A DNA stretch of 64,000 nucleotides from Candidatus Krumholzibacteriia bacterium (GCA_963836185.1 CAWIIQ010000001.1:1376001-1440000); one strand, 5' to 3'. Counted from the stretch's first letter, positions 1,800-24,519 are shown. A program made the numbers and translations. The notes: a model not told the origin generated them from the sequence alone.

Positions 1800-3143
1800 A
1801 TGTCAGAGAAGATGACGAAGGAAGAACTGCTCGCCAAGTCCAAGCAGCCGGGAATCGACGCGATGAAGCTTCATCCGTTCTACAAGGGGAAGATCGCTTC
1901 CATGCCGAAATGCTGTATCAGGAACATCGATGATTTCGCGATATGGTACACGCCCGGCGTGGCCAAGCCGTGCCTCGATATCGCTGAGAATCCCGAGATG
2001 GTCTTCGAGCATACCAACAAGGCGAACTCGATCGCCGTCGTCTCTGACGGAACCCGCGTCCTCGGACTCGGCGACATCGGCCCCGAGGCGGCAATGCCTG
2101 TCATGGAGGGCAAGGCCCTGATCTTCAAGTACCTCGGTGGCGTCGATGCCACTCCCATCTGCCTTGACACTAAGGACCCCGACAAATTCATCGAGACAGT
2201 CAAGCTGCTGCAGCCCTCGTTCGGCGGCTTCAACCTCGAGGACATTTCACAGCCGAAATGCTTCCGTGTTCTCGATACGCTGCGGAAAGAGTGCCACGTA
2301 CCGGTATGGCACGATGACCAGCAGGGCACGGCGGCTGTTACCGTTGCCGGTCTTATCAACGCGGTCAAGATCGTCGACAAGAAGCTCAGCGAGGTAAAGG
2401 TCGCGATGCTCGGTGCGGGCGCCGCGAATATCTGCATCGCCAAGATGATCATCCTCGCCGGTGTCGAGCCGAAGAACATCGTCATGATGGACAGCAAGGG
2501 CATCCTCCACGAGAGCCGCGAGGCCGATCTGAAGGAGGCCTATGAGGAGAAGTGGGAGATGGCCCAGATCACGAACGGCGAGGGTCTCTCTGGCGGGCCG
2601 GAAGTCGCCATCAAGGGCGCCGACGTTCTCATCGCCCTCTCGAAGATCGGGCCGGACACGGTAAAGAAGGAATGGATCGCCTCGATGGCCGACGACTCGA
2701 TCGTGTTCGTCTGCGCCAACCCGATTCCCGAGATCTATCCCTGGGAGGCGAAAGAGGCCGGCGCGAGGATCGTCGCGACTGGCCGGAGCGATTTCCCCAA
2801 CCAGGTCAACAACTCTCTCGGATTCCCCGGTATCTTCCGCGGCACCCTCGACGTGATGGCCAAGACGATCACCGACGAGATGTGCGTTGCCGCAGCGGTC
2901 GAGCTGGCGAAGACAGCCGAGGACAACGGGATGCACGAGAACTACCTCGTTCCGACGATGGACGAGTGGGAAGTCTTCCCGCGCGAGGCCGCTGCGGTAG
3001 GCCGCAAGGCTATCGAGCAGGGTGTGGCGAGGCTTGATTTCACCTACGATGAGCTGTACAAGATGGCGGAGATGAAGATCAAGGCTGCCCGCGAAGCCTT
3101 CGATTCGCTTCAGAACAATGGATTCATCAAGATGCCCGAGTAG
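1800..3143 (+). CDS. NAD(P)-dependent malic enzyme
   Basis: YTPGVA, DGTRVLGLGDIG, NLEDI, HDDQQGTA, GAGAA, ATGRSDFPNQVNN. Confidence 0.95.
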   Translation: MSEKMTKEELLAKSKQPGIDAMKLHPFYKGKIASMPKCCIRNIDDFAIWYTPGVAKPCLDIAENPEMVFEHTNKANSIAVVSDGTRVLGLGDIGPEAAMPVMEGKALIFKYLGGVDATPICLDTKDPDKFIETVKLLQPSFGGFNLEDISQPKCFRVLDTLRKECHVPVWHDDQQGTAAVTVAGLINAVKIVDKKLSEVKVAMLGAGAANICIAKMIILAGVEPKNIVMMDSKGILHESREADLKEAYEEKWEMAQITNGEGLSGGPEVAIKGADVLIALSKIGPDTVKKEWIASMADDSIVFVCANPIPEIYPWEAKEAGARIVATGRSDFPNQVNNSLGFPGIFRGTLDVMAKTITDEMCVAAAVELAKTAEDNGMHENYLVPTMDEWEVFPREAAAVGRKAIEQGVARLDFTYDELYKMAEMKIKAAREAFDSLQNNGFIKMPE

Positions 3144-3248: not shown

Positions 3249-4361
3249 ATGTACAAGATCGCGTGGCTGCCCGGCGACGGCGTCGGAAACGAGGTCATGG
3301 AAGCAGCAAAGCTGGTGCTCGACGCACTGAAGCTCGACGCCGAGTATATCCCCGGCGATATCGGCTGGGAGTTCTGGAAGAGCGAGGGGAATCCCCTTCC
3401 TGACAGGACGATCGATCTCTGTAACAACACCGATTGCGCCCTATTCGGCGCGATCACTTCGAAGCCGCGCGACGAAGCGCTCGAGGAGCTCGCTCCCGAA
3501 CTGCGCGACAAGGGCTTCGCATACTCGAGCCCGATCGTGGCCCTGAGACAGAAGTTCGATCTGGGCGTAAACCTCAGGCCGTGTAAGGCCTTCCCCGGTA
3601 ACCCGCTGAACTTCAAGGAAGGCATCGACCTTGCCGTGTTCAGGGAGAACACTGAGGGCCTTTACGTAGGCGTCGAGTTCAATCCGGTCGAGGATGACAT
3701 GAAGGCGTTCCTCGACAGCAAGCACAAGAAATTCCACCGCTTCGTCGATACTCCGGGCGAGGATATGGCGATAAGCATGAGAATCTTTACGCGCAAAGGC
3801 TGCGAGAGGATCGTTCGCGCCGCGTTCGAATACGCGAAGAAGACGAACAGGCCTACGGTCACGATCGTCGAGAAGCCCAACGTGATCAGGGAGACGAGCG
3901 GGATGATGATCCGCGTCGCCCGCGAAGTCGCCAAAGACTTCCCCGGCATCGAGCTGTGGGAGACCAACATCGACGCGATGTGCATGTGGCTCGTAAAGAA
4001 TCCCGGCGACTACAGCGTTCTGGTAGCTTCGAACATGTTCGGTGATATCATCTCCGACCTCGCCGCGCAGCTCGTCGGCGGACTCGGTTTCGCCTCTTCG
4101 GCGAACATCGGCGAAAAGTACGCCGTATTCGAGCCGACTCACGGAAGCGCGCCTAAGTACTACGGACAGTACAAGGTCAACCCGATGGCGATGCTGCTTA
4201 CCACGCGTCTGATGCTCGAGTGGCTCGGCGAGATGGACATGGCGGCAAAGCTCGAGAAGGGTGTTTCGAAGACGATCTCGGATGGGAAGATACGCACATA
4301 CGATATGGGCGGCTCGAACACCACCCTAGAGATCGCAGAGGAAGTCGTAAGGAACATGTAA
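3249..4361 (+). CDS. Isocitrate/homoisocitrate/isopropylmalate dehydrogenase family (beta-decarboxylating)
   Basis: PGDGVG, RENTEGLY, KPNV, NMFGDIISD, FEPTHGSAP, NPMA. Confidence 0.92.
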   Translation: MYKIAWLPGDGVGNEVMEAAKLVLDALKLDAEYIPGDIGWEFWKSEGNPLPDRTIDLCNNTDCALFGAITSKPRDEALEELAPELRDKGFAYSSPIVALRQKFDLGVNLRPCKAFPGNPLNFKEGIDLAVFRENTEGLYVGVEFNPVEDDMKAFLDSKHKKFHRFVDTPGEDMAISMRIFTRKGCERIVRAAFEYAKKTNRPTVTIVEKPNVIRETSGMMIRVAREVAKDFPGIELWETNIDAMCMWLVKNPGDYSVLVASNMFGDIISDLAAQLVGGLGFASSANIGEKYAVFEPTHGSAPKYYGQYKVNPMAMLLTTRLMLEWLGEMDMAAKLEKGVSKTISDGKIRTYDMGGSNTTLEIAEEVVRNM

Positions 4362-4373
4362 CGGTTCAAACAT

Positions 4374-4403
4374 GAGGGCTGGCCCGGCGGGCCGGCCCTC
4401 TTT
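4374..4403 (+). terminator. GC-rich intercistronic hairpin with short T tail
   Basis: GAGGGCTGGCCC...GGGCCGGCCCTC-TTT between dehydrogenase and dehydratase genes. Confidence 0.45.
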
Positions 4404-4422: not shown

Positions 4423-6330
4423 ATGGCAGGCAAGACTATTATCGAGAAGATCCTTTCCGCTCATGCGGGTAAGGAAGTTTCGGCCGGCGACGTAGTCTGG
4501 ATCGGGATCGACGTGCGCACGGCGAGGGACTTCGGCGGCGCAAGCGTCGTGAAGAACCTCAAGGAGAATTACGAGTCTCCCTGGATCGACGATCCGGCGA
4601 AGACCTGTTTCACCTTCGACTGTAACGTGCCGGCGAATACGACAGGGTACGCCGAGAACCAGCAGATATGCAGGGATTTCGCGAAGGAGACAGGCATCAG
4701 GGTTTACGACGTGAGAGCCGGTATCGGTTCGCATGTCGCGATGGAGCGCGGGTTGGCCAGGCCCGGCGAGATATTCGTCGGGACCGACAGCCACCTCAAC
4801 ATCATGGGAGCCGTCGGATGTTTCGGGCAGGGGATGGGCGACCGCGACATAGCTTACGTCTGGGGGTCCGGACGCAACTGGTTCGAAGTGCCCTCGTCTA
4901 TGAGAGTAGTCCTGGAAGGCTCGGTCGAGTATCCCGTCACGGCGAAAGATATTGCACTTGCCGTTATCAGCGAACTCGGTTCCGCCGGGGCACTCGGCAA
5001 GGTCATAGAGTTCTCAGGATCGGGTGCCGATTCTCTGAGTCTGTCAGGGCGTATAACGATTGCCAGCATGGCTACCGAGATGGGTGCTATTGCCGCCTTC
5101 CTTCCAGTCAGTGACGGGGTGGCGTCGTATATCGAAAAACGGTCAGGGGGAGGAAAGGTCGAGACAGTCACCGCCGATGTTGACGCCTCGTACGATTCCT
5201 CGATCACTATCGACCTCAACGGCCTCGAGCCTCTCGCTGCCTGTCCTTCCAGCCCATCGAACGTAAAAAAGATAAGCGAGGTTGCCGGTACGAAGATCGA
5301 CACCGCGATCATCGCCTCATGCACGAACGGCCGTTTCGAGGACATGGTACATGCCGCATCGATACTGAAGGGTAAGAGGATCAAGGACGGCACGAGCCTC
5401 AAGGTCGTCCCGGCGACAGAAGAGGTCTACGAAAGGATGCTCGAGGAAGGGATACTGAAGATATTCATTGCCGCCGGCGCACTGGTGACCAACCCGGGAT
5501 GCGGCGGTTGCGCTTCGGGACAGCTCGGAATGGTCGGCAAGGGCGAGATCCAGCTGAGCACCTCGAACAGAAACTTCGCCGGCAAGCAAGGGAAGGGCGA
5601 GACATACCTTGTCAGTCCAGCAGTCGCCGCGGCGTCGATCATCGCCGGTGAGATCACCTCTCCGGTCGGAATGGATATCGAACTGATCGATTTCGTTCCC
5701 GACGAGGAGTTCGACGGAGAACCAGCCCTGGAGGCTATCTCCTGGCTTGGCGAGGGAAAGGCATCTGGCAGGCCTGTACCGAAGTCCCACGCGGGCGAGA
5801 CCGTCGACTGTCCGAAGGTCCTGAAAGGCAGGGCGAGGATCATCACCGAACCTGACGGACGCCTGATGGACGACATCGACACCGACATGATCTTCCATAA
5901 CAAGTACCTCGCGATCACCGAGATCGCGAAGATGGGCAAGCATACATTCGAGACGCTCGACGGGTACGAGGAATTCGCGGCGAGCGTTGAGCCGGGCGAT
6001 ATCATCATCGCAGGCGGCAACTTCGGCTGCGGTTCATCGCGCCAGGCTGCCGTTGACTGTTTTATCCCTCTCGGTGTAAAACTCGTTATCACCGCTTCGA
6101 CCGGGGCGATATACAAGCGCAACATCATCAATTCGGGATTCCCCTTCCTCGAGGTTTCCGCTCTTCACGAGGCGGGAATAGAGGAGGGTATGGAGATCGA
6201 GATCGATTTCGAGAAGGGAACGATCACCCTGCCCGGCGGTAAGGTCATCGAAGCTGACAAACCTACCTCTGTTCAGCTCGATATCTGTCGTGCCGGCGGG
6301 CTTTTCGCCTATACGGGAGAGGAGGATTGA
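4423..6330 (+). CDS. Fused LeuC-LeuD-type [4Fe-4S] aconitase-family dehydratase
   Basis: Start MAGKTIIEKIL at 4423; GTDSH, SCTNGR, CGGC ligands; C-terminal swivel domain DIDTD...GGNFGCGSSR. Confidence 0.9.
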   Translation: MAGKTIIEKILSAHAGKEVSAGDVVWIGIDVRTARDFGGASVVKNLKENYESPWIDDPAKTCFTFDCNVPANTTGYAENQQICRDFAKETGIRVYDVRAGIGSHVAMERGLARPGEIFVGTDSHLNIMGAVGCFGQGMGDRDIAYVWGSGRNWFEVPSSMRVVLEGSVEYPVTAKDIALAVISELGSAGALGKVIEFSGSGADSLSLSGRITIASMATEMGAIAAFLPVSDGVASYIEKRSGGGKVETVTADVDASYDSSITIDLNGLEPLAACPSSPSNVKKISEVAGTKIDTAIIASCTNGRFEDMVHAASILKGKRIKDGTSLKVVPATEEVYERMLEEGILKIFIAAGALVTNPGCGGCASGQLGMVGKGEIQLSTSNRNFAGKQGKGETYLVSPAVAAASIIAGEITSPVGMDIELIDFVPDEEFDGEPALEAISWLGEGKASGRPVPKSHAGETVDCPKVLKGRARIITEPDGRLMDDIDTDMIFHNKYLAITEIAKMGKHTFETLDGYEEFAASVEPGDIIIAGGNFGCGSSRQAAVDCFIPLGVKLVITASTGAIYKRNIINSGFPFLEVSALHEAGIEEGMEIEIDFEKGTITLPGGKVIEADKPTSVQLDICRAGGLFAYTGEED

Positions 6331-6331
6331 T

Positions 6332-7585
6332 ATGGGCGCTAACATGATCGAGAAGATCCTGGCGAGAGCTTCGGGGAACGTCGATGTCCATGTCGGGGAT
6401 ATCGTCTTCGCGAAACCTCACATGATACTCTCTCATGACAATTCGGCGGCGATCCTGAAGATCTTCGAGGGCCTCGGCGGGAAGAAGGTCTGGGACCCGG
6501 GCCGTGTCTTTATCGCCCTGGACCACGCCGTTCCACCCCCCGATCACAAGAAGGCGAACAATCACAAGATGATCCGTGAGTTCGTCGAGAAGAACGGCAT
6601 CACAAACTTTTTTGACTGCGGCTGTGGTATCTGCCACCAAGTCCTTCCCGAGGAGGGACTCGTAGAACCCGGAACGGTCATCTTCGGATCAGATTCGCAC
6701 ACAACGACGCACGGCGCGCTCGGGGCGGCCGGTATCCCGATCGGCAGGACCGAGACGGCAAGCGTCTGGGCACTCGGTGAGACATGGCTAAAGGTGCCGC
6801 CGACGATAAAATTCGTGCTGAATGGTGAGCTGCGCGAGGGAGTCGTGGCGAAAGACATAGTGCTCTATCTCATAGGGCAGATAACAGCTGACGGTGCGAC
6901 ATACAAAGCGGTCGAGTTCCACGGCCCCGTCGTCGAAAAGATGAGTATGGGCGGGAGGCTTACTCTCTGCAACATGGCGGCCGAGATGGGCGCCAAGGCG
7001 GGAATGGTACCTTTCGACGATGTCACGGCCGAGTTTCTCAAGGGAAGGCTGAGCGGTGATTTCGAGACGGGTAATCCCGACGATGACGCCGAATACGAAT
7101 CGATCCTCGCGATAGACTGCTCGATGATAGGCCCGCAGGTGGCGAGGCCCCACAAGGTCGACAATGTCGTCGCGGCGGCCGACCTCGAAGAGACGAAGAT
7201 CGATGTCGCGCTCCTCGGGACATGCACCAACGGAAGGCTCGAGGACCTGCACCAGGCTGCGGAGATCCTGAAAGGCAGGAAGATCGCTCCCGGGGTGAGG
7301 CTTCTGGTCTATCCCGCCTCGCGAGGTATCCTCGACGAGGCTAACCGTGACGGGACATCATCGATCCTGCTTGAAGCGGGAGCCCAGGTAGCGGTGCCGG
7401 CATGTGGCCCCTGTCTTGGAGCATACGGCGGAGTCCTTGCCCCCGGCGAGAACTGCGTCTCCACGGCTAACAGGAACTTCAAGGGACGGATGGGATGCAA
7501 GGAAGACACGGGAATCTACCTCGCCAGCCCGGCGACAGTAGCACTTTCCGCAATAGAAGGCAGGATAGTATCCCCGTACGTCTGA
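6332..7585 (+). CDS. 3-isopropylmalate dehydratase/homoaconitase large subunit
   Basis: Start MGANMIEKIL after AGGAGG; SHDN, LDH, GICHQ, GSDSHT, GTCTNGR, CGPC, STANRNF. Confidence 0.92.
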   Translation: MGANMIEKILARASGNVDVHVGDIVFAKPHMILSHDNSAAILKIFEGLGGKKVWDPGRVFIALDHAVPPPDHKKANNHKMIREFVEKNGITNFFDCGCGICHQVLPEEGLVEPGTVIFGSDSHTTTHGALGAAGIPIGRTETASVWALGETWLKVPPTIKFVLNGELREGVVAKDIVLYLIGQITADGATYKAVEFHGPVVEKMSMGGRLTLCNMAAEMGAKAGMVPFDDVTAEFLKGRLSGDFETGNPDDDAEYESILAIDCSMIGPQVARPHKVDNVVAAADLEETKIDVALLGTCTNGRLEDLHQAAEILKGRKIAPGVRLLVYPASRGILDEANRDGTSSILLEAGAQVAVPACGPCLGAYGGVLAPGENCVSTANRNFKGRMGCKEDTGIYLASPATVALSAIEGRIVSPYV

Positions 7586-7604
7586 CGGGAGGGAGGATAC
7601 CGAG

Positions 7605-8114
7605 ATGGAGATAAAAGGAAGAGTCTGGATCCTCGATGATGACGACATAAACACCGACGTCATCTATCCCGGCAAGTACACCTACGAGCTCTTCTCCAAC
7701 GAGGAGATGGCAAGTCACGCCATGGAGGATTTCGACCCCGAATTCGCCTCTAAAGTAGGTGAAGGTGACGTCATAATTGCCGGTAAAAACTTCGGTTGCG
7801 GCTCGTCACGCGAGCAGGCAGTGACCTGCCTGAAGTACTCCGGAGTAGGGGCGATAGTGGCAGCGTCGTACGCGAGGATCTACTACCGCAACGCGATCAA
7901 CCAGGCCCTCTACGCGATCGAATGCCCTGAGGCCTCGGACTACGCGAGAGCTCACAAGGACGAGCTTTCGGGGAGCGAGATCACACTCGATCCCGCTGAA
8001 GGCACGATGACGCTCGGCGGACAGGAGTTCAGCTTCTCGCCGATGTCTGGGAAGGCAAGGGAGATCTTCGACGCGGGCGGACTGGCCGAGTATACGAAGA
8101 AGAAGCTCGGTTAG
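7605..8114 (+). CDS. 3-isopropylmalate dehydratase/homoaconitase small subunit
   Basis: DINTDVIYPGKY, GKNFGCGSSREQA, ARIYYRNAIN. Confidence 0.92.
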   Translation: MEIKGRVWILDDDDINTDVIYPGKYTYELFSNEEMASHAMEDFDPEFASKVGEGDVIIAGKNFGCGSSREQAVTCLKYSGVGAIVAASYARIYYRNAINQALYAIECPEASDYARAHKDELSGSEITLDPAEGTMTLGGQEFSFSPMSGKAREIFDAGGLAEYTKKKLG

Positions 8115-10418: not shown

Positions 10419-10754
10419 TTAGTATCCAGCCTTCTCCGGCGGACGCCTCTCGGGAACGTACTCGTGGGGGATCATTTCCTCGTTCCATTCCTTAGAGACA
10501 TAGAGGCTGCAGTAGCAGCTCCCGAACTCGGCGACATCCGGCTCGCGGTAATCGCATGGACAGCATATGTCGTGGTCCTGCTCGCGATCGCCGCTGGCAA
10601 GGCGGCAAGGGCAGCAGAAGAAACCGTAGCGTTCCTTGTTCGTCAGCAGCCCTTCGAGCAGGCCCATCGTGAGATCAATGTCTTCGTTGAAGAAGTAGCC
10701 CTTCTTCTCCTGAAGTGGCTTGAGCCGTTCGTACAGTTTTTGAGCTTCCGTCAT
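10419..10754 (-). CDS. Ferredoxin:thioredoxin reductase catalytic-subunit family protein
   Basis: NKERYG..CPCR, DICCPC, GSCYCSLY (CPC/CPC/CxC signature), VPERRP tail. Confidence 0.92.
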   Translation of the reverse strand: MTEAQKLYERLKPLQEKKGYFFNEDIDLTMGLLEGLLTNKERYGFFCCPCRLASGDREQDHDICCPCDYREPDVAEFGSCYCSLYVSKEWNEEMIPHEYVPERRPPEKAGY

Positions 10755-11008
10755 TCCAGACCCAGCGCTTCCCGGATCTCTCTCTCCTGGAATCCGACTA
10801 TGACCGTCTCGCCGATCTGTATGGTGGGGTAGGAGACCCTCGAGTTGAGCTTTCTGACTTCCTCAACGATAGCGCGCCGCTCATCGCCTGTGAGGAGGTC
10901 GACATCTGTGGCCTCGAACTCGATCCCCTGACTGGTGAAGAACTCCTTTGTCCGCCTGCAGTGGCTGCAGGTACTGAGTGTATACATCCTGACGGTTATG
11001 TCGGTCAA
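10751..11008 (-). CDS. Glutaredoxin (NrdH/YruB-like)
   Basis: YTLSTCSHC, SYPTI, IVGF; TTG start after GAGGAGG; overlaps FTR start. Confidence 0.9.
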   Translation of the reverse strand: MTDITVRMYTLSTCSHCRRTKEFFTSQGIEFEATDVDLLTGDERRAIVEEVRKLNSRVSYPTIQIGETVIVGFQEREIREALGLE

Positions 11009-14300: not shown

Positions 14301-14899
14301 TCAACGTGCTGGTGATGGACACCGAGATCTACTCGAACACGGGCGGCCAGATGTCGAAGGCGACGCCGATGGGTGCGATCGCGAAGTTCGCTGCCGCCGG
14401 CAAGCAGATGCCGAAGAAGGACCTCGCAATGATGATGATGTCGTACGGATACATCTACGTCGCGAGGATCGCGTTCGGCGCCAACGAAGGCCAGGCGATC
14501 AAGGCATTCATCGAGGCGGAGGCCTACGATGGACCGTCGATCATCATCGCCTACTCGCACTGCATCGGGCAGGGCCTCGACATGAGGCGCGGGCTCGACC
14601 AGCAGGCGCTGGCCGTCAAGACGGGTTACTGGCCGCTGGTCAGGTACAACCCCGACCTGCGCAGCGAGGGCAAGAATCCTCTGCAGCTCGACTCGAAGGC
14701 CCCGAGCATCCCGCTCGAGGATTACATCTACAACGAGAACCGCTACCGCGCCGTCAAGGCGAGGGACCCGGAGATGGCTGCCGACCTTCTGAAGAGGGCG
14801 CAGGCAGACGTCGAACCGCCGCTGGAAACTCTACGAGTACTGGGCCGCGATGCCCGGGCCCGATGCAGAATCCAAGTAGCATCCGGAGCGGATAGATGA
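11309..14899 (+). CDS. nifJ: Pyruvate:ferredoxin/flavodoxin oxidoreductase (homodimeric)
   Basis: Start MSRKMVTIDGNEA at 11309; YPITPS, EMQSEGGA, two CxxCxxC..CP ferredoxin motifs, FSGACAGCGE, GGDGWAYDIG; true C-terminus probably ends 14879 (frameshift). Confidence 0.96.
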   Translation: MSRKMVTIDGNEATTYSAHKLNEVCAIYPITPSSAMGEFADQWSADGRTNIWGTIPNVTEMQSEGGAAAAVHGALQRGALTTTFTASQGLLLMIPSMYKIAGELTPTVFHVSARSLATHALSIFGDHSDVMAVRQTGFALLSSNSVQEAMDMAAIAQMATLESRVPFLHFFDGFRTSHEVDKVELIEDDQYRELIDEDLVRAHRDRAMSPDKPVLRGTAQNPDAYFQARETINPFYNACAGIVMDAMKKFEKVVGRKYEIFQYYGAPDAEKVIIVMGSGAETVQETVDYVNSNGQKVGMVKVRLFRPFDVDSFINAIPASAKMLGVLDRTKEPGAIGEPLYQDVLTALAEKHELTMSRFKDGIAVTGGRYGLSSKEFTPAMVMAVLDNMSAKDQKNHFTVGIDDDVTHMSLDYDKDFLVKHPNQTRAVFFGLGSDGTVGANKNSIKIIGEGTDMYAQGYFVYDSKKAGSVTESHLRFGKDEIHSPYLIAKADFVACHLFPFMERIDILKYATEGGTFLLNSPFPADETWDLLTYEVQKAIIDKKLEFYVIDANEIATELGLGGRINTIMQTGFFILGGVLPKEEAIEAIKKSIKKTYGRRGEKVVKMNEAAVDATEANLHKIEVPAEPTSKLHMIPPVPEDSPEYVREVIGKQIARDGNDIPVSAFAPDGSFPTGTTKYEKRNIALEIPVWDPDVCIQCGKCVLICPHAVIRAKVYDADKLEGAPETFKSADAVAKDFKGKKFTIQVAPEDCTGCTLCFQTCPAKNKEEEGKKALNMALQPPLRATEKPNWEFFKGLPYIDRGEINATATRTVQFLEPLFEFSGACAGCGETPYVKLLTQLYGDRTMIGNATGCSSIYGGNLPATPYTMDKNGRGVTWSNSLFEDAAEFAFGMRLGLDKQIEYASEMVQRVSGQIGDELTKGILEADMSDENGIREQRARVVALREKLAAIDTPDAKNLAGLADVLVRKSVWALGGDGWAYDIGYGGLDHSLALGRNLNVLVMDTEIYSNTGGQMSKATPMGAIAKFAAAGKQMPKKDLAMMMMSYGYIYVARIAFGANEGQAIKAFIEAEAYDGPSIIIAYSHCIGQGLDMRRGLDQQALAVKTGYWPLVRYNPDLRSEGKNPLQLDSKAPSIPLEDYIYNENRYRAVKARDPEMAADLLKRAQADVEPPLETLRVLGRDARARCRIQVASGADR

Positions 14900-16654: not shown

Positions 16655-18262
16655 TTATTTTGGAACGGGTTTGAAGATCGTGTCGAGTATCGTCCCGTCT
16701 CTCCACTCGACGACCTCGACCGGCTCGTCGGTCAGTTCTGGAAGAGGGGGAGTCGAGCCGAACTCGGCCGCCGCTTTTATTGCAAGGTCGCGGAGCTCCT
16801 CTATCGTTACAACCTTGAGGCCGCTCGCCGCGGCATTATTTTTCAGGGCGCCCATGTACTTCGCTTCCGACTTCGGATTGAATGCGACGTACTCCTCGGT
16901 CACCGCGACATCGATACACTCGCCCGGTACCGATACGGTGTAGACGCTGTCGACTATCCTCGGGAATCCCTTGCCGCTCTCCTTCTTGCCCGTTGCCAGC
17001 GGGAGGAACATGATCGTCAGCTCGGAGCCCGCCGCGACGCCCTGCGCGCCGCCGATGCCGCCGATGATCCGGCCGCCCGCGCAGATCGAGTTGACGTTGA
17101 AGTCAGTATCCATCTCGAGTGTGGAGAGGACCGAGACATCGAGCATGTTCACAGCGTTTTCTCTATTGGCCATGTCGTCGTATTCACCGGTCGATATCTC
17201 GTGGTGGTTGTGGTCGAGGAGCATCGATTTGATGACCCGCTCCGACGGTTCGAAGCACTGCCCGTGAAGGAGGTTCTCGATCAGGCCCTCCTGGAGCATC
17301 TCGACGTGCAGCGATGTGCAGCCGCCGATCGAGAAACCGGACTGGATCTTCTTCTCGATGAGGATCTTCTTGATCTCGTCGAGGACGATCAGCCCCGCGC
17401 CCGAGCCTACCTGGAAATTAAACCCGTCGAAGATCACCTCGGCGGCATTCATCACATTCAGTACCTGTCCAGCGATCTGCGAGTTGAACGCGTTCGCCCT
17501 TATCCTCTCTATGTCCAGGGTGCCCGAGCCGACACCGGAGGCATCGCCCGGATTGTCGACCTTGACTACGTAGTCGACGTCGACCATCGAGAGGGAGCGG
17601 GGGAAGAGGTACTTATCGCTGATCTCGCCGGCGAGCAGGCAGACGTTCTCCGCCCAGAGGGTATCGGCGAGGAAGAGGCCGAGCGGGCCGACCCACGAGT
17701 CGGGATCGCCCATAAGTCCGTTGGCGTTTCCCCACTGGTCGGCGATCGGTACGGGGCCGAAGGCGACCTTGATCTTCGCCTCGCCTGTATGGAAGCGCCT
17801 TACCCTGTTGCCGTGCCCGTACCCGGTGACGATCCAGGGAAGGAAGTCGCCCGCCATCATATGAGCGCCCATCTTGCGGTAGCACGATCCGTTTATCCCC
17901 GTGATCGTCCCGTCGGCGATAGCTTCGGGGAGCCATGGGACGCAGTTGTCGAAGAAGGCGTTGCCGAGGAGCTTGATATCCTTCAGGCCCTTCTCCCTGA
18001 GCTTTGCCACGATGATCTCGAGACAGTGGTCGCCGAGGCGGTAGTAATGCGGGTACGATATCCAGTCACCGTCCTGGAGTATATCGATGACCTCATCGAG
18101 AGTCGTGACCTTGCTCTTTCCGCTTCTCATCTTCGCGCGGCCGGGGCGTCCGGCGTAGGGGTCGCTGTAAGCGGGATCGAAGGCCTGGCTGAAGGGCTTC
18201 TTTTCTACGCCGTTGACCACGGCAGGGACCCTGCGTCCGAGAGAGTTCTTGACGAAATCCAT
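16655..18262 (-). CDS. citF: Citrate lyase alpha subunit / citrate CoA-transferase family
   Basis: KNSLGRRVP, ISYPHYYRLGD, ADQWGNANG, FQVGSG, LDVSVLSTLEMDTDFNVN, GGIGG, VVEWRDGTILD. Confidence 0.85.
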   Translation of the reverse strand: MDFVKNSLGRRVPAVVNGVEKKPFSQAFDPAYSDPYAGRPGRAKMRSGKSKVTTLDEVIDILQDGDWISYPHYYRLGDHCLEIIVAKLREKGLKDIKLLGNAFFDNCVPWLPEAIADGTITGINGSCYRKMGAHMMAGDFLPWIVTGYGHGNRVRRFHTGEAKIKVAFGPVPIADQWGNANGLMGDPDSWVGPLGLFLADTLWAENVCLLAGEISDKYLFPRSLSMVDVDYVVKVDNPGDASGVGSGTLDIERIRANAFNSQIAGQVLNVMNAAEVIFDGFNFQVGSGAGLIVLDEIKKILIEKKIQSGFSIGGCTSLHVEMLQEGLIENLLHGQCFEPSERVIKSMLLDHNHHEISTGEYDDMANRENAVNMLDVSVLSTLEMDTDFNVNSICAGGRIIGGIGGAQGVAAGSELTIMFLPLATGKKESGKGFPRIVDSVYTVSVPGECIDVAVTEEYVAFNPKSEAKYMGALKNNAAASGLKVVTIEELRDLAIKAAAEFGSTPPLPELTDEPVEVVEWRDGTILDTIFKPVPK

Positions 18263-24421: not shown

Positions 24422-24519
24422 GGGAATGGATGGGTTCTGGTGGGCCCCGAGGACTTCAAATCCTTATGCCGGGTGCTAAAACCATCCGGGGTGGGTTCGA
24501 TTCCCACACGTTCCCGCCA
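24422..24519 (+). tRNA. selC: tRNA-Sec (anticodon UCA)
   Basis: 98 nt; GGGAAUG../..CGUUCCC-G-CCA acceptor, GGGUUC-UGGU-GGGCCC D arm, GGA-CUUCAAA-UCC anticodon arm, long variable arm, GUGGG-UUCGAUU-CCCAC T arm. Confidence 0.93.

Follow-up and report, generated by a model that had tools for sequence, protein, structure and literature searches.

Why should a bacterium keep two aconitase-type hydro-lyases side by side, one of which has lost its catalytic histidine? The question is raised by a 64,000 nucleotide stretch of DNA (the window) from a Candidatus Krumholzibacteriia bacterium, GCA_963836185.1, where it covers positions 1376001–1440000 of CAWIIQ010000001.1, here called contig C1. The genome (G000) is 3.5 Mb and 92.5% complete, and the nearest named homologues come from Krumholzibacteriota and Eisenbacteria. 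Within the window a fused LeuC/LeuD-type [4Fe-4S] hydro-lyase of 635 amino acids, enzyme A (4423–6330, plus strand), is followed on the same strand by enzyme B, which has a large subunit of 417 amino acids (6332–7585) and a small subunit of 169 amino acids (7605–8114). An earlier note, made from the sequence alone, had proposed that the two enzymes replace a canonical aconitase by dividing the isomerisation of citrate or homocitrate between them; the three open reading frames and the motifs it described are all confirmed in the sequence. We hold with moderate confidence that A and B would each perform one half of the isomerisation between homoisocitrate and homocitrate in a reversed aminoadipate route, with A giving (S)-homocitrate, while homocitrate in any form is a rather probable substrate. 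The substrates, the stereochemistry and the direction of this route are what we infer from the observations that follow.

Enzyme A carries the motif TARDFGG at residues 33–39, FTFDCNVP at 63–70, the cluster cysteines Cys300, Cys360 and Cys363, and GSSR at 537–540. Active site positions are given below by residue numbers that we take to be those of pig aconitase, placed on A through a fetched mitochondrial-type aconitase. Aligned in this way, Gln72 of the aconitase is replaced by Arg, His101 by Cys, His147 by Ser or Thr with a His one residue later (118/118), Asn258 by Ser (120/120) and Arg452 by Lys; Arg580 is absent and a new invariant residue, His492, appears in the small-domain loop. Conservation was counted over the 120 best homologues of A, which are 50–100% identical to it, with gapped rows excluded from each total. 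Arg35 is present in 113/113, Asp66 in 116/116, and Ser or Thr at 103 followed by His104 in 118/118; Asp122 and His124 are also invariant, and Ser215, Glu219, the three cysteines, Arg383, Lys388, His492, Ser538 and Arg540 occur in all 120. Residue 67 is Cys in 112 of 116 homologues, Thr in the other four and never His. Of the catalytic Asp-His pair that A was said to lack, the Asp is therefore kept and only the His is lost. The reported Asp-Cys replacement is widespread without the Cys being invariant, and the altered site is real and more extensively rebuilt than had been claimed. The conserved trait of A is the loss of His, not the gain of Cys. Cys67 is unlikely to be a new catalytic residue, being Thr in those four homologues and in five fetched loci. 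In aconitase the leaving hydroxyl receives its proton from His101 and Ser642 acts as the base; aconitase X has an unrelated Lys instead of His101 (PMC8184944), so loss of His101 need not mean that A is inactive.

Both enzymes belong to the LeuC/HacA subfamily of the aconitase superfamily by profile matches, the three cysteines, GSSR and fold. The subfamily models PRK00402, TIGR01343 and TIGR02086 give 431, 416 and 420 bits for A and 534, 524 and 503 bits for B, all over cut-off, but every equivalog model is failed by both. Against canonical aconitase models A reaches 338 bits vs a cut-off of 612 (PRK07229) and 135 vs 825 (TIGR01340), and B reaches 316 for PRK07229. For LEU2, leuC and HacA_Meth, with cut-offs of 611, 560 and 550, the scores are 354, 205 and 346 for A and 447, 260 and 429 for B, whose small subunit scores 152 vs 230 for HacB_Meth. 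The AcnD model TIGR02333 gives A 67 bits vs a cut-off of 1420. Gln72, Arg580 and a TDH loop are present in 10/10 aligned aconitases, whereas positions 72, 101 and 147 are Arg, Cys and Ser in A, with a TDM loop, and His, His and His in B, with a TDV loop, and neither has Arg580. The structural model of A (pLDDT 89) has the aconitase fold, matching 4KP1 in Foldseek at E 4e-45 and 7ACN at a TM score of 0.82. A and B are only 37% identical in the large part and 40% in the small part, and the 37% identity together with the invariant new residues of A rules out a recent duplication or a pseudogene. In an LG+G4 tree A forms its own clade with 100/100 support, and to judge from its sequence it is a real, conserved enzyme subfamily that has so far been undescribed.

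Enzyme B retains the canonical site, with SHDN at residue 34 of the large subunit, ALDHAVP at residue 62 and Cys298, Cys358 and Cys361, and with NTDVIYPGKYTY at residue 16 and the GSSR base at residue 66 of the small subunit. Asp100, His101, His147, Asn258 and Arg452 are all present and Arg580 is absent, as in A. The equivalent of Arg580 (Aco1 R604) is required for aconitate, and fungal and Thermus homoaconitases perform the homoaconitate–homoisocitrate step only, the homocitrate step being done by aconitases (PMC3556520). Five proteins from genomes that hold A pass the TIGR00139 homoaconitase model (700–825 bits vs 529.9), and in their genomes there is no B among the aconitase-family matches. 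All forms of B and these five proteins fall into one clade (UFBoot/SH-aLRT 99/99), in which the B of the window is their sister (87/93); an earlier quick tree had given 98 and 95 SH-aLRT for this grouping. The tree was built from 36 of 50 aligned rows, leaving out 12 near-redundant rows and two whose small domain could not be aligned. The small-domain loop, NTDVIYPGKYTY in B, compares with NTDGIYPGKYTY in locus L118, and B and the TIGR00139 proteins alike lack Arg580 and the TDH loop. At L175 a citryl-CoA-lyase-like gene lies immediately upstream of a TIGR00139-passing protein. The likeness of B to fungal Lys4, which had been suggested earlier, is thus upheld in both descent and loop, and B is predicted to be a homoaconitase.

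To see what accompanies A, a profile from 31 of its homologues was run against GTDB contigs, giving at least 523 confirmed A stretches, of which 80 were kept as loci. These come from Krumholzibacteriota, Eisenbacteria, Bacteroidales, Cloacimonadota, Planctomycetota, Gemmatimonadota, Thermoplasmatota, Heimdallarchaeota and others. In 38 of the 80 loci a B lies no more than 10 kb from A; at the same range 27 loci have an HD-domain protein, 26 a lyase gene and 24 a beta-decarboxylating dehydrogenase (DH), a set of genes we refer to as the module; 20 loci show no partner, ten of them being shorter than 11 kb. The fused state is incidental: five of the 80 loci have a split A, 21 of the 38 loci with a B have it in fused form, and fusion as the key trait was rejected. 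Two sets of genomes were used for counting, 52 from the order to which the window belongs and the full genomes from which 55 of the 80 loci come (the A-bearing set, G202–G256), with five shared; related genomes in these sets are not independent and most are incomplete. In the order, A is present in 31 of 52 genomes, 30 of which also have B (adjacent in 28), and 17 have neither. In the A-bearing set a B or Lys4-type partner is found in 50 of 55 (32 adjacent, 12 elsewhere, five Lys4-type and one partial), as expected if the two types co-occur. Where the cluster is split (L016/L088, L040/L089 and L042), A lies by the lyase and B by DH. A division of one isomerisation between two enzymes, as the earlier note had it, would be the best reading of this arrangement.

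The identity of DH points to the substrate. The gene (3249–4361, plus strand) likely encodes a homoisocitrate dehydrogenase (HICDH). Its motif YSSPIVALR (3522–3548) is identical to that of the Schizosaccharomyces pombe HICDH (PDB 3TY3), while isocitrate dehydrogenases (ICDHs) have SINV or SLNV; SPIV is present in 47/47 orthologues of DH and SLNV in both ICDHs aligned. Asn115 has a known role in the substrate helix of ICDH, and DH has at this position an Ile that aligns with the Ile of Thermus HICDH. DH reaches 290 bits vs 510 for the ICDH model PRK08997, and no fungal HICDH model is among its matches. An orthologue is found in 51 of the 55 A-bearing genomes vs none of eight module-negative relatives. 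This genome has no PF00180 gene besides DH, and no PF00330 (aconitase-family) genes besides A and B.

We suggest the following sequence of steps. DH would carboxylate 2-oxoadipate reductively, using CO2 and NAD(P)H, to homoisocitrate; B would dehydrate this to cis-homoaconitate; and A, with its rebuilt site, would hydrate cis-homoaconitate to (S)-homocitrate, a mirror-image form of the intermediate found in the usual lysine pathway. Homocitryl-CoA could then be formed by a CitF CoA-transferase or, in other genomes, by a ligase that uses ATP, to be cleaved by CitE or an enzyme of the citryl-CoA-lyase type to acetyl-CoA or acetate and 2-oxoglutarate, which Kor, a 2-oxoacid:ferredoxin oxidoreductase, would convert to succinyl-CoA. 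The most likely source of the 2-oxoadipate is lysine. More tentatively, A may have a mirror-image site and act as an (S)-homocitrate hydro-lyase, within a widespread CO2-fixing route that needs no oxygen and leads from 2-oxoadipate to acetate and 2-oxoglutarate, perhaps followed here by a second round on 2-oxoglutarate, an iterative chain shortening that is the reverse of elongation. Use of both C7 and C6 substrates may be most plausible in this genome.

The lyases found near A, which the earlier note had not seen, come in three interchangeable forms. In one, CitF accompanies a CitD–CitE fusion; in another it accompanies a citryl-CoA-lyase-like protein; in the third a protein of that kind goes with a SucCD-like ligase, the two being fused in some cases. 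CitF occurs in 31 of 34 module-positive vs three of 18 module-negative genomes of the order, and the CitF and CitE of the module form their own clades, apart from those in operons of aconitase and isocitrate dehydrogenase. This genome has a CitD–CitE fusion and CitF on contig C3 (195431–198195), the CitF being over the citF model cut-off; citC, citG and citX were not found in it. Lacking these, the citrate-lyase-like enzyme at C3 (L185) may use free CoA. A divergent CitF-family CoA-transferase, likely a further module member, lies in the window itself (16655–18262, minus strand; TIGR01584 306 bits, under cut-off). It sits on a long branch, about 30–37% identical to the C3 type, and is kept in 29 of the 52 order genomes, sharing a contig with A and B in 11 of these and directly following the B small subunit at L009. 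That one lyase should have two CoA-transferases may point to a second substrate.

The stereochemistry of these lyases bears on what A would have to do. In fold the partner lyases are of the (pro-3S) citrate lyase and citrate-synthase types, and enzymes of these types release the pro-S arm. By the Cahn–Ingold–Prelog rules the acetate arm of (R)-homocitrate is at the pro-R place, and its pro-S place holds the uncleavable propionate arm. Because the acetate arm of (R)-homocitrate is pro-R, the module lyase should need (S)-homocitrate. Aconitases act on the oxaloacetate-derived arm and PrpD on the acyl-CoA-derived carbon, and the methylcitrate cycle therefore needs PrpD, or AcnD with PrpF (PMC5690661; PMC3556520). 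Since aconitases yield (R)-homocitrate, an enzyme working on the acyl-CoA-derived arm would be needed here too, like PrpD in the methylcitrate cycle. Forming (S)-homocitrate from cis-homoaconitate would require a flipped substrate, which fits the moved acid and carboxylate-binding residues of A and would explain its persistence beside standard aconitases.

That PrpD might take the place of A was set down as a prediction before the search, and it held in genus g18. A PrpD-family protein is found in five of 75 genomes, three of them the g18 genomes without A (G162, G173 and G127) and the others G238 and G223. In G162 and G173 A has been lost in place, so that the malic enzyme gene runs on to B, and B, DH, both CitF and a standard aconitase are kept; this loss had at first seemed to speak against the proposed role of A. 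The g18 proteins are 45–49% identical to that of G238, whose gene lies directly behind a Lys4-type gene. No PrpD-family protein was found in the g18 genomes that have A (G025 and G044, 97% and 94% complete) or in 53 of the 55 A-bearing genomes. A methylcitrate cycle in the genome of the window was rejected: it has no citrate synthase (PF00285) and no PrpD-like gene and reaches 67 bits for TIGR02333, PrpB not having been searched.

Nor does the pair replace a canonical aconitase, as had been supposed. At least 16 of the 55 A-bearing genomes, with G255 counted in, hold a standard aconitase over an NCBIfam equivalog cut-off. Twenty long aconitase-family candidates were fetched, of which 18 pass the AcnA, mitochondrial-type or PRK07229 cut-offs and two are Lys4-type; about ten further A-bearing genomes have candidates by length and score that were left unclassified. 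Mutual exclusion of the A/B pair and the PRK07229 aconitase was likewise rejected by their coexistence in the genomes examined. Separate operons of aconitase, lyase and isocitrate dehydrogenase are found at L177 (G025) and at L178 and L183 (G247 and G255). These look like a compact C6 counterpart of the module, their lyase being citrate-lyase- or ATP-citrate-lyase-like, and the archaeal ones have a monomeric NADP-isocitrate dehydrogenase. The standard aconitase of fungi and Thermus handles (R)-homocitrate (PMC3556520), and because of this A would be redundant beside such an enzyme unless it makes another product. A leucine pathway for A and B was rejected in this genome, which has no leuA and in which the LeuCD equivalogs failed; Bacteroidales with A and B retain a separate LeuC.

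The link to lysine comes from gene neighbourhoods and from co-occurrence. Lysine-catabolic genes flank the module in five of the 80 loci, and P6C dehydrogenase does so in three. The operons at L166 and L167 run SDH–LKR–CitDE–CitF–DH–HD–A–B, and that at L168 runs DH–HD–A–B–P6C dehydrogenase–SDH (NF050084, 811 vs 730). The saccharopine-dehydrogenase family is present in 50 of the 55 A-bearing genomes vs three of 14 controls. Within the order the picture is mixed: of the 31 genomes that are at least 90% complete, 22 have both module and saccharopine dehydrogenase, two the module only, four the dehydrogenase only and three neither. Of 56 genomes, this one included, none has a homocitrate synthase over cut-off, two have LysX, 18 a lysA over cut-off and 15 P6C dehydrogenase, and because of these counts breakdown would be the likelier use of the module in most genomes. 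As for aminoadipate biosynthesis of the LysW or fungal type, the genome of the window has no homocitrate synthase and no LysX, aminoadipate reductase not having been searched; it also has no LeuA and no lysA over cut-off. A KamA-like radical SAM gene (C1:439228–440502, minus strand), under the lysine 2,3-aminomutase cut-off, has an ATP-grasp and a peptidase-like gene as neighbours and not genes of lysine fermentation.

Synthesis is probably the likelier use in two Thermoplasmatota genomes, G247 and G255. Both have LysW operons (L181:6416–13055 and L182:9728–16335) with a homocitrate synthase-like gene near the cut-off (398 and 388 vs 414), and in G255 the operon is a full lrp–HCS-like–lysW–X–Y–Z–J–K without a homoaconitase or HICDH gene. 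The aconitase-family genes of G255 are only A, B and a PRK07229 aconitase in an operon of aconitase, citDEF and monomeric isocitrate dehydrogenase, and DH is its only PF00180 gene; G247 is the same with one additional LeuC-like gene. By gene content, A, B and DH appear as the only candidates for the missing LysW steps of G255 besides the aconitase of the citrate operon. Whichever way the route runs, A and B would have the same activities.

Several observations weigh against (S)-homocitrate as the product of A in a lysine-fed route. DH is under the HICDH cut-off, its best NCBIfam model being AksF2_Meth, a HICDH, at 339 vs 540 bits. B misses the TIGR00139 equivalog (529.9) with 293 bits for the large and 111 for the small subunit, fused B homologues reaching 294–337, and the tree used bacterial TIGR00139-passing proteins as stand-ins for Lys4 and contains no characterised HacAB, LysTU or fungal Lys4. 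No partner for A was found in five of the 55 draft genomes (G204, G224, G225, G234 and G244). The stereochemical chain is built on textbook assignments. The PrpD exchange rests on five related genomes, three of them 80–84% complete: the g18 PrpD-like genes do not adjoin the module, in G162, G173 and G127 the step could be covered by a standard aconitase that these genomes also have, no B was detected in G127, and PrpD occurs together with A in G238 and G223. On the lysine side, the family model PF16653 also takes in non-lysine enzymes, and in genus g4 all five module-positive genomes are without the saccharopine-dehydrogenase family while three genomes that have it are without the module. In this genome P6C dehydrogenase was not found, and a lysine-6-dehydrogenase/saccharopine-dehydrogenase-like gene (C1:1137195–1138338, minus strand, L186) lies in two frames, being intact in five of six genus relatives. 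In G247 and G255 no module-type lyase was seen near A, and a homocitrate synthase there would make (R)-homocitrate. Finally, the operon of the window includes a malic enzyme, the genome has no other aconitase or ICDH, and the lyase genes stand in a run of pyk, citD–citE, citF and phosphoenolpyruvate (PEP) carboxykinase (C3:193364–200156, L185) whose order is the same in G007 and G024 but not in G025; all three points fit oxaloacetate, and hence citrate, as product.

The last of these points lead to the alternative that survives best, and which is still unlikely: a two-enzyme aconitase that would convert 2-oxoglutarate through isocitrate to citrate, by B and then A, for cleavage to acetate and oxaloacetate and onward use by malic enzyme or PEP carboxykinase, or a variant in which C7 and C6 compounds are both used and the chain is shortened twice. 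In its favour, the genome of the window has no other aconitase or ICDH besides A, B and DH, Kor and malic enzyme share their operon, a CitF over its cut-off is encoded between pyk and the PEP carboxykinase gene, and there are two CitF paralogues. Against it, a single standard aconitase does both citrate steps and is present in the at least 16 A-bearing genomes, in three of them in a separate operon with lyase and ICDH. Arg580 is absent from both A and B, DH has Ile for Asn115 in 47/47 orthologues and B groups with homoaconitases in the tree. Of the two substrates first proposed, citrate and homocitrate, the evidence favours the latter.

It is distinctly unlikely that the module works on homocitrate with A making the (R) form, as a dedicated half-enzyme like Aco2, and with a lyase of changed facial selectivity. 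In its favour, A and B occur in G247 and G255 together with a LysW operon and a gene like that of homocitrate synthase, and the genomes that lost A retain a standard aconitase. The Arg-to-Lys change of A at Arg452 also recalls an Arg-to-Lys change at another position of Aco2p, but Aco2p keeps nearly all catalytic residues (PMC3556520) and the loss of His101 and His147 would be unexplained. So would the presence of A beside standard aconitases and of PrpD where A is missing, both of which fit an (S)-homocitrate-forming A.

Forward lysine biosynthesis, in which the lyases would condense acetyl-CoA with 2-oxoglutarate, A and B isomerise, DH make 2-oxoadipate and the saccharopine enzymes finish, is improbable. 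In its favour, 38 of the 56 genomes, including this one, are without lysA over cut-off, SDH and LKR serve fungal synthesis too, and G247 and G255 tie A, B and DH to a LysW operon. However, LysX is in two of the 56 genomes, lysA is already in 18, and the P6C dehydrogenase that flanks three loci is an enzyme of breakdown. Lysine 2,3-aminomutase over cut-off was in none of the six genomes tested (five module genomes and this one), so there is no classical lysine fermentation there.

Another series of 2-oxoacids is very improbable, for instance one with a longer or branched tricarboxylate, or one in which 2-oxoadipate comes from glutaryl-CoA through a Kor-like enzyme and not from lysine. It would suit the failure of all members to reach equivalog cut-offs, the uncoupling of module and lysine genes in g4, and the presence of Kor alpha and beta with acyl-CoA ligases within the operon at L014, L015 and L022, but the motifs of B and DH match homoisocitrate enzymes specifically, and no dehydrogenase could oxidise methylisocitrate, a tertiary alcohol. 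That A is catalytically dead or regulatory, an Fe–S sensor or scaffold, is scarcely credible: the His101 and His147 positions are both altered, but the Ser base, Asp66, Asp122/His124, Glu219, the three cysteines, Arg383 and Arg540 are invariant, as are the new Arg35, His104 and His492, aconitase X has Lys in place of His101 (PMC8184944) and exchange with the PrpD family suggests an enzyme.

The surroundings of A and B are otherwise as follows. The operon runs on one strand in the order korDABG, malic enzyme, DH, A and B, so that the dehydrogenase, malic enzyme and 2-oxoacid:ferredoxin oxidoreductase which the earlier note assigned to it are all upstream of A on the same strand. The window opens, on the plus strand, within the alpha subunit gene of this oxidoreductase (korA-like, 3′ end at 1–331), whose start lies upstream of the window with the ferredoxin gene korD. 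The beta subunit (332–1147; best model of the 2-oxoglutarate type, 347 bits, under the cut-off of 364), the gamma subunit (1147–1695) and a malic-enzyme family protein (1800–3143) follow on that strand. Between DH and A is a G+C-rich hairpin of 12 pairs with a short T-rich tail (4374–4400, plus strand) that could be terminator-like or stabilise mRNA; with eight terminator-like sites observed vs 5.5 expected from shuffles, the call is only suggestive. The hairpin is strong, lies outside every coding frame in use and may adjust how strongly A and B are expressed compared with the genes before them.

The HD-domain protein, of 180 amino acids, is among the steadiest partners of A across lyase types, and here it is encoded at C1:1268305–1268850 (L187), after a DUF4438 gene. 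In Gemmatimonadota- or Planctomycetota-like loci (L031, L047, L078 and L087) A follows a cluster of FAD-dependent oxidoreductases of the DAO family, with an enoyl-CoA-hydratase-like gene also preceding A at L031 and L087; a related cluster lies about 7–10 kb upstream of the operon here and just upstream at L008, L009, L189 and L195. Elsewhere in the window are a ferredoxin:thioredoxin reductase catalytic subunit gene beside a glutaredoxin-like gene (10419–11008, minus strand) and a tRNA-Sec with anticodon TCA (24422–24519, C1:1400422–1400519; ARAGORN). Other frameshift-like genes occur in this assembly at C1:1365888–1369054 and at the 3′ end of a pyruvate:ferredoxin oxidoreductase gene near window position 14899, so that the two frames of the lysine-6-dehydrogenase-like gene may reflect an assembly error.

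If the proposed route is correct, A would extend the aconitase superfamily by an activity and a catalytic arrangement that are both new to it, without His101 and with the opposite product face. The module would provide an anaerobic breakdown of lysine or 2-oxoadipate that bypasses the difficult oxidation of glutaryl-CoA, and a bacterial and archaeal setting for the lineage that includes the fungal-type homoaconitase. In the literature covered, which took in few subscription papers and no supplements, we found no description of this gene set, of a homocitrate lyase, homocitryl-CoA or (S)-homocitrate metabolism, or of reductive carboxylation of 2-oxoadipate; amino-acid degraders of these groups are discussed without such a route in the parts used of PMC7661554 and PMC8542988. 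There is also a caution for annotation, in that hundreds of sediment and digester genomes have the genes of the module under the labels LeuC/D, ICDH, citrate lyase or ATP-citrate lyase, and these genes may be miscounted as leucine synthesis or a reverse tricarboxylic acid cycle. A reverse cycle has been inferred in Cloacimonadota from ATP-citrate lyase (PMC8542988).

Among known systems, the nearest solved structures by sequence and fold are the large subunits of the Methanocaldococcus jannaschii isopropylmalate/citramalate isomerase and homoaconitase (4KP1, 4NQY and 4KP2; E 2e-91 to 1e-83 for A and 1e-111 to 4e-105 for B). Those enzymes keep Asp-His and each perform both half-reactions (PMC3556520 for HacAB), whereas A and B fail the HacA_Meth and LEU2 models. 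The lyases of the module are homologous to CitDEF, Ccs/Ccl and ATP-citrate lyase, but here CitD is fused to CitE, the search of this genome yielded no citC, citG or citX, the CitF and CitE of the module stand in clades of their own, and homocitrate is the predicted substrate. The 2-methylcitrate cycle likewise has a dedicated dehydratase, PrpD or AcnD/PrpF alongside AcnB, since the reacting arm is on a side that aconitase cannot use (PMC5690661; PMC3556520), but A is Fe–S dependent and of LeuC/D descent, no PrpF was seen beside it, and the route is closed by DH and not by methylisocitrate lyase. Another parallel is the isomerisation of homocitrate in fungi and Thermus thermophilus, which likewise uses two aconitase-family enzymes, aconitase or Aco2p together with Lys4, LysF or LysTU (PMC3556520). 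B shares the PGKYTY loop of that system and groups with TIGR00139, and DH has the S. pombe HICDH motif. In contrast, the first half-step is assigned here not to an aconitase but to A, an enzyme of LeuC/D lineage without His101 and His147, and the module has no homocitrate synthase but includes citrate-lyase-type enzymes and the HD protein, with a predicted (S) product and a route that would run in the reverse direction.

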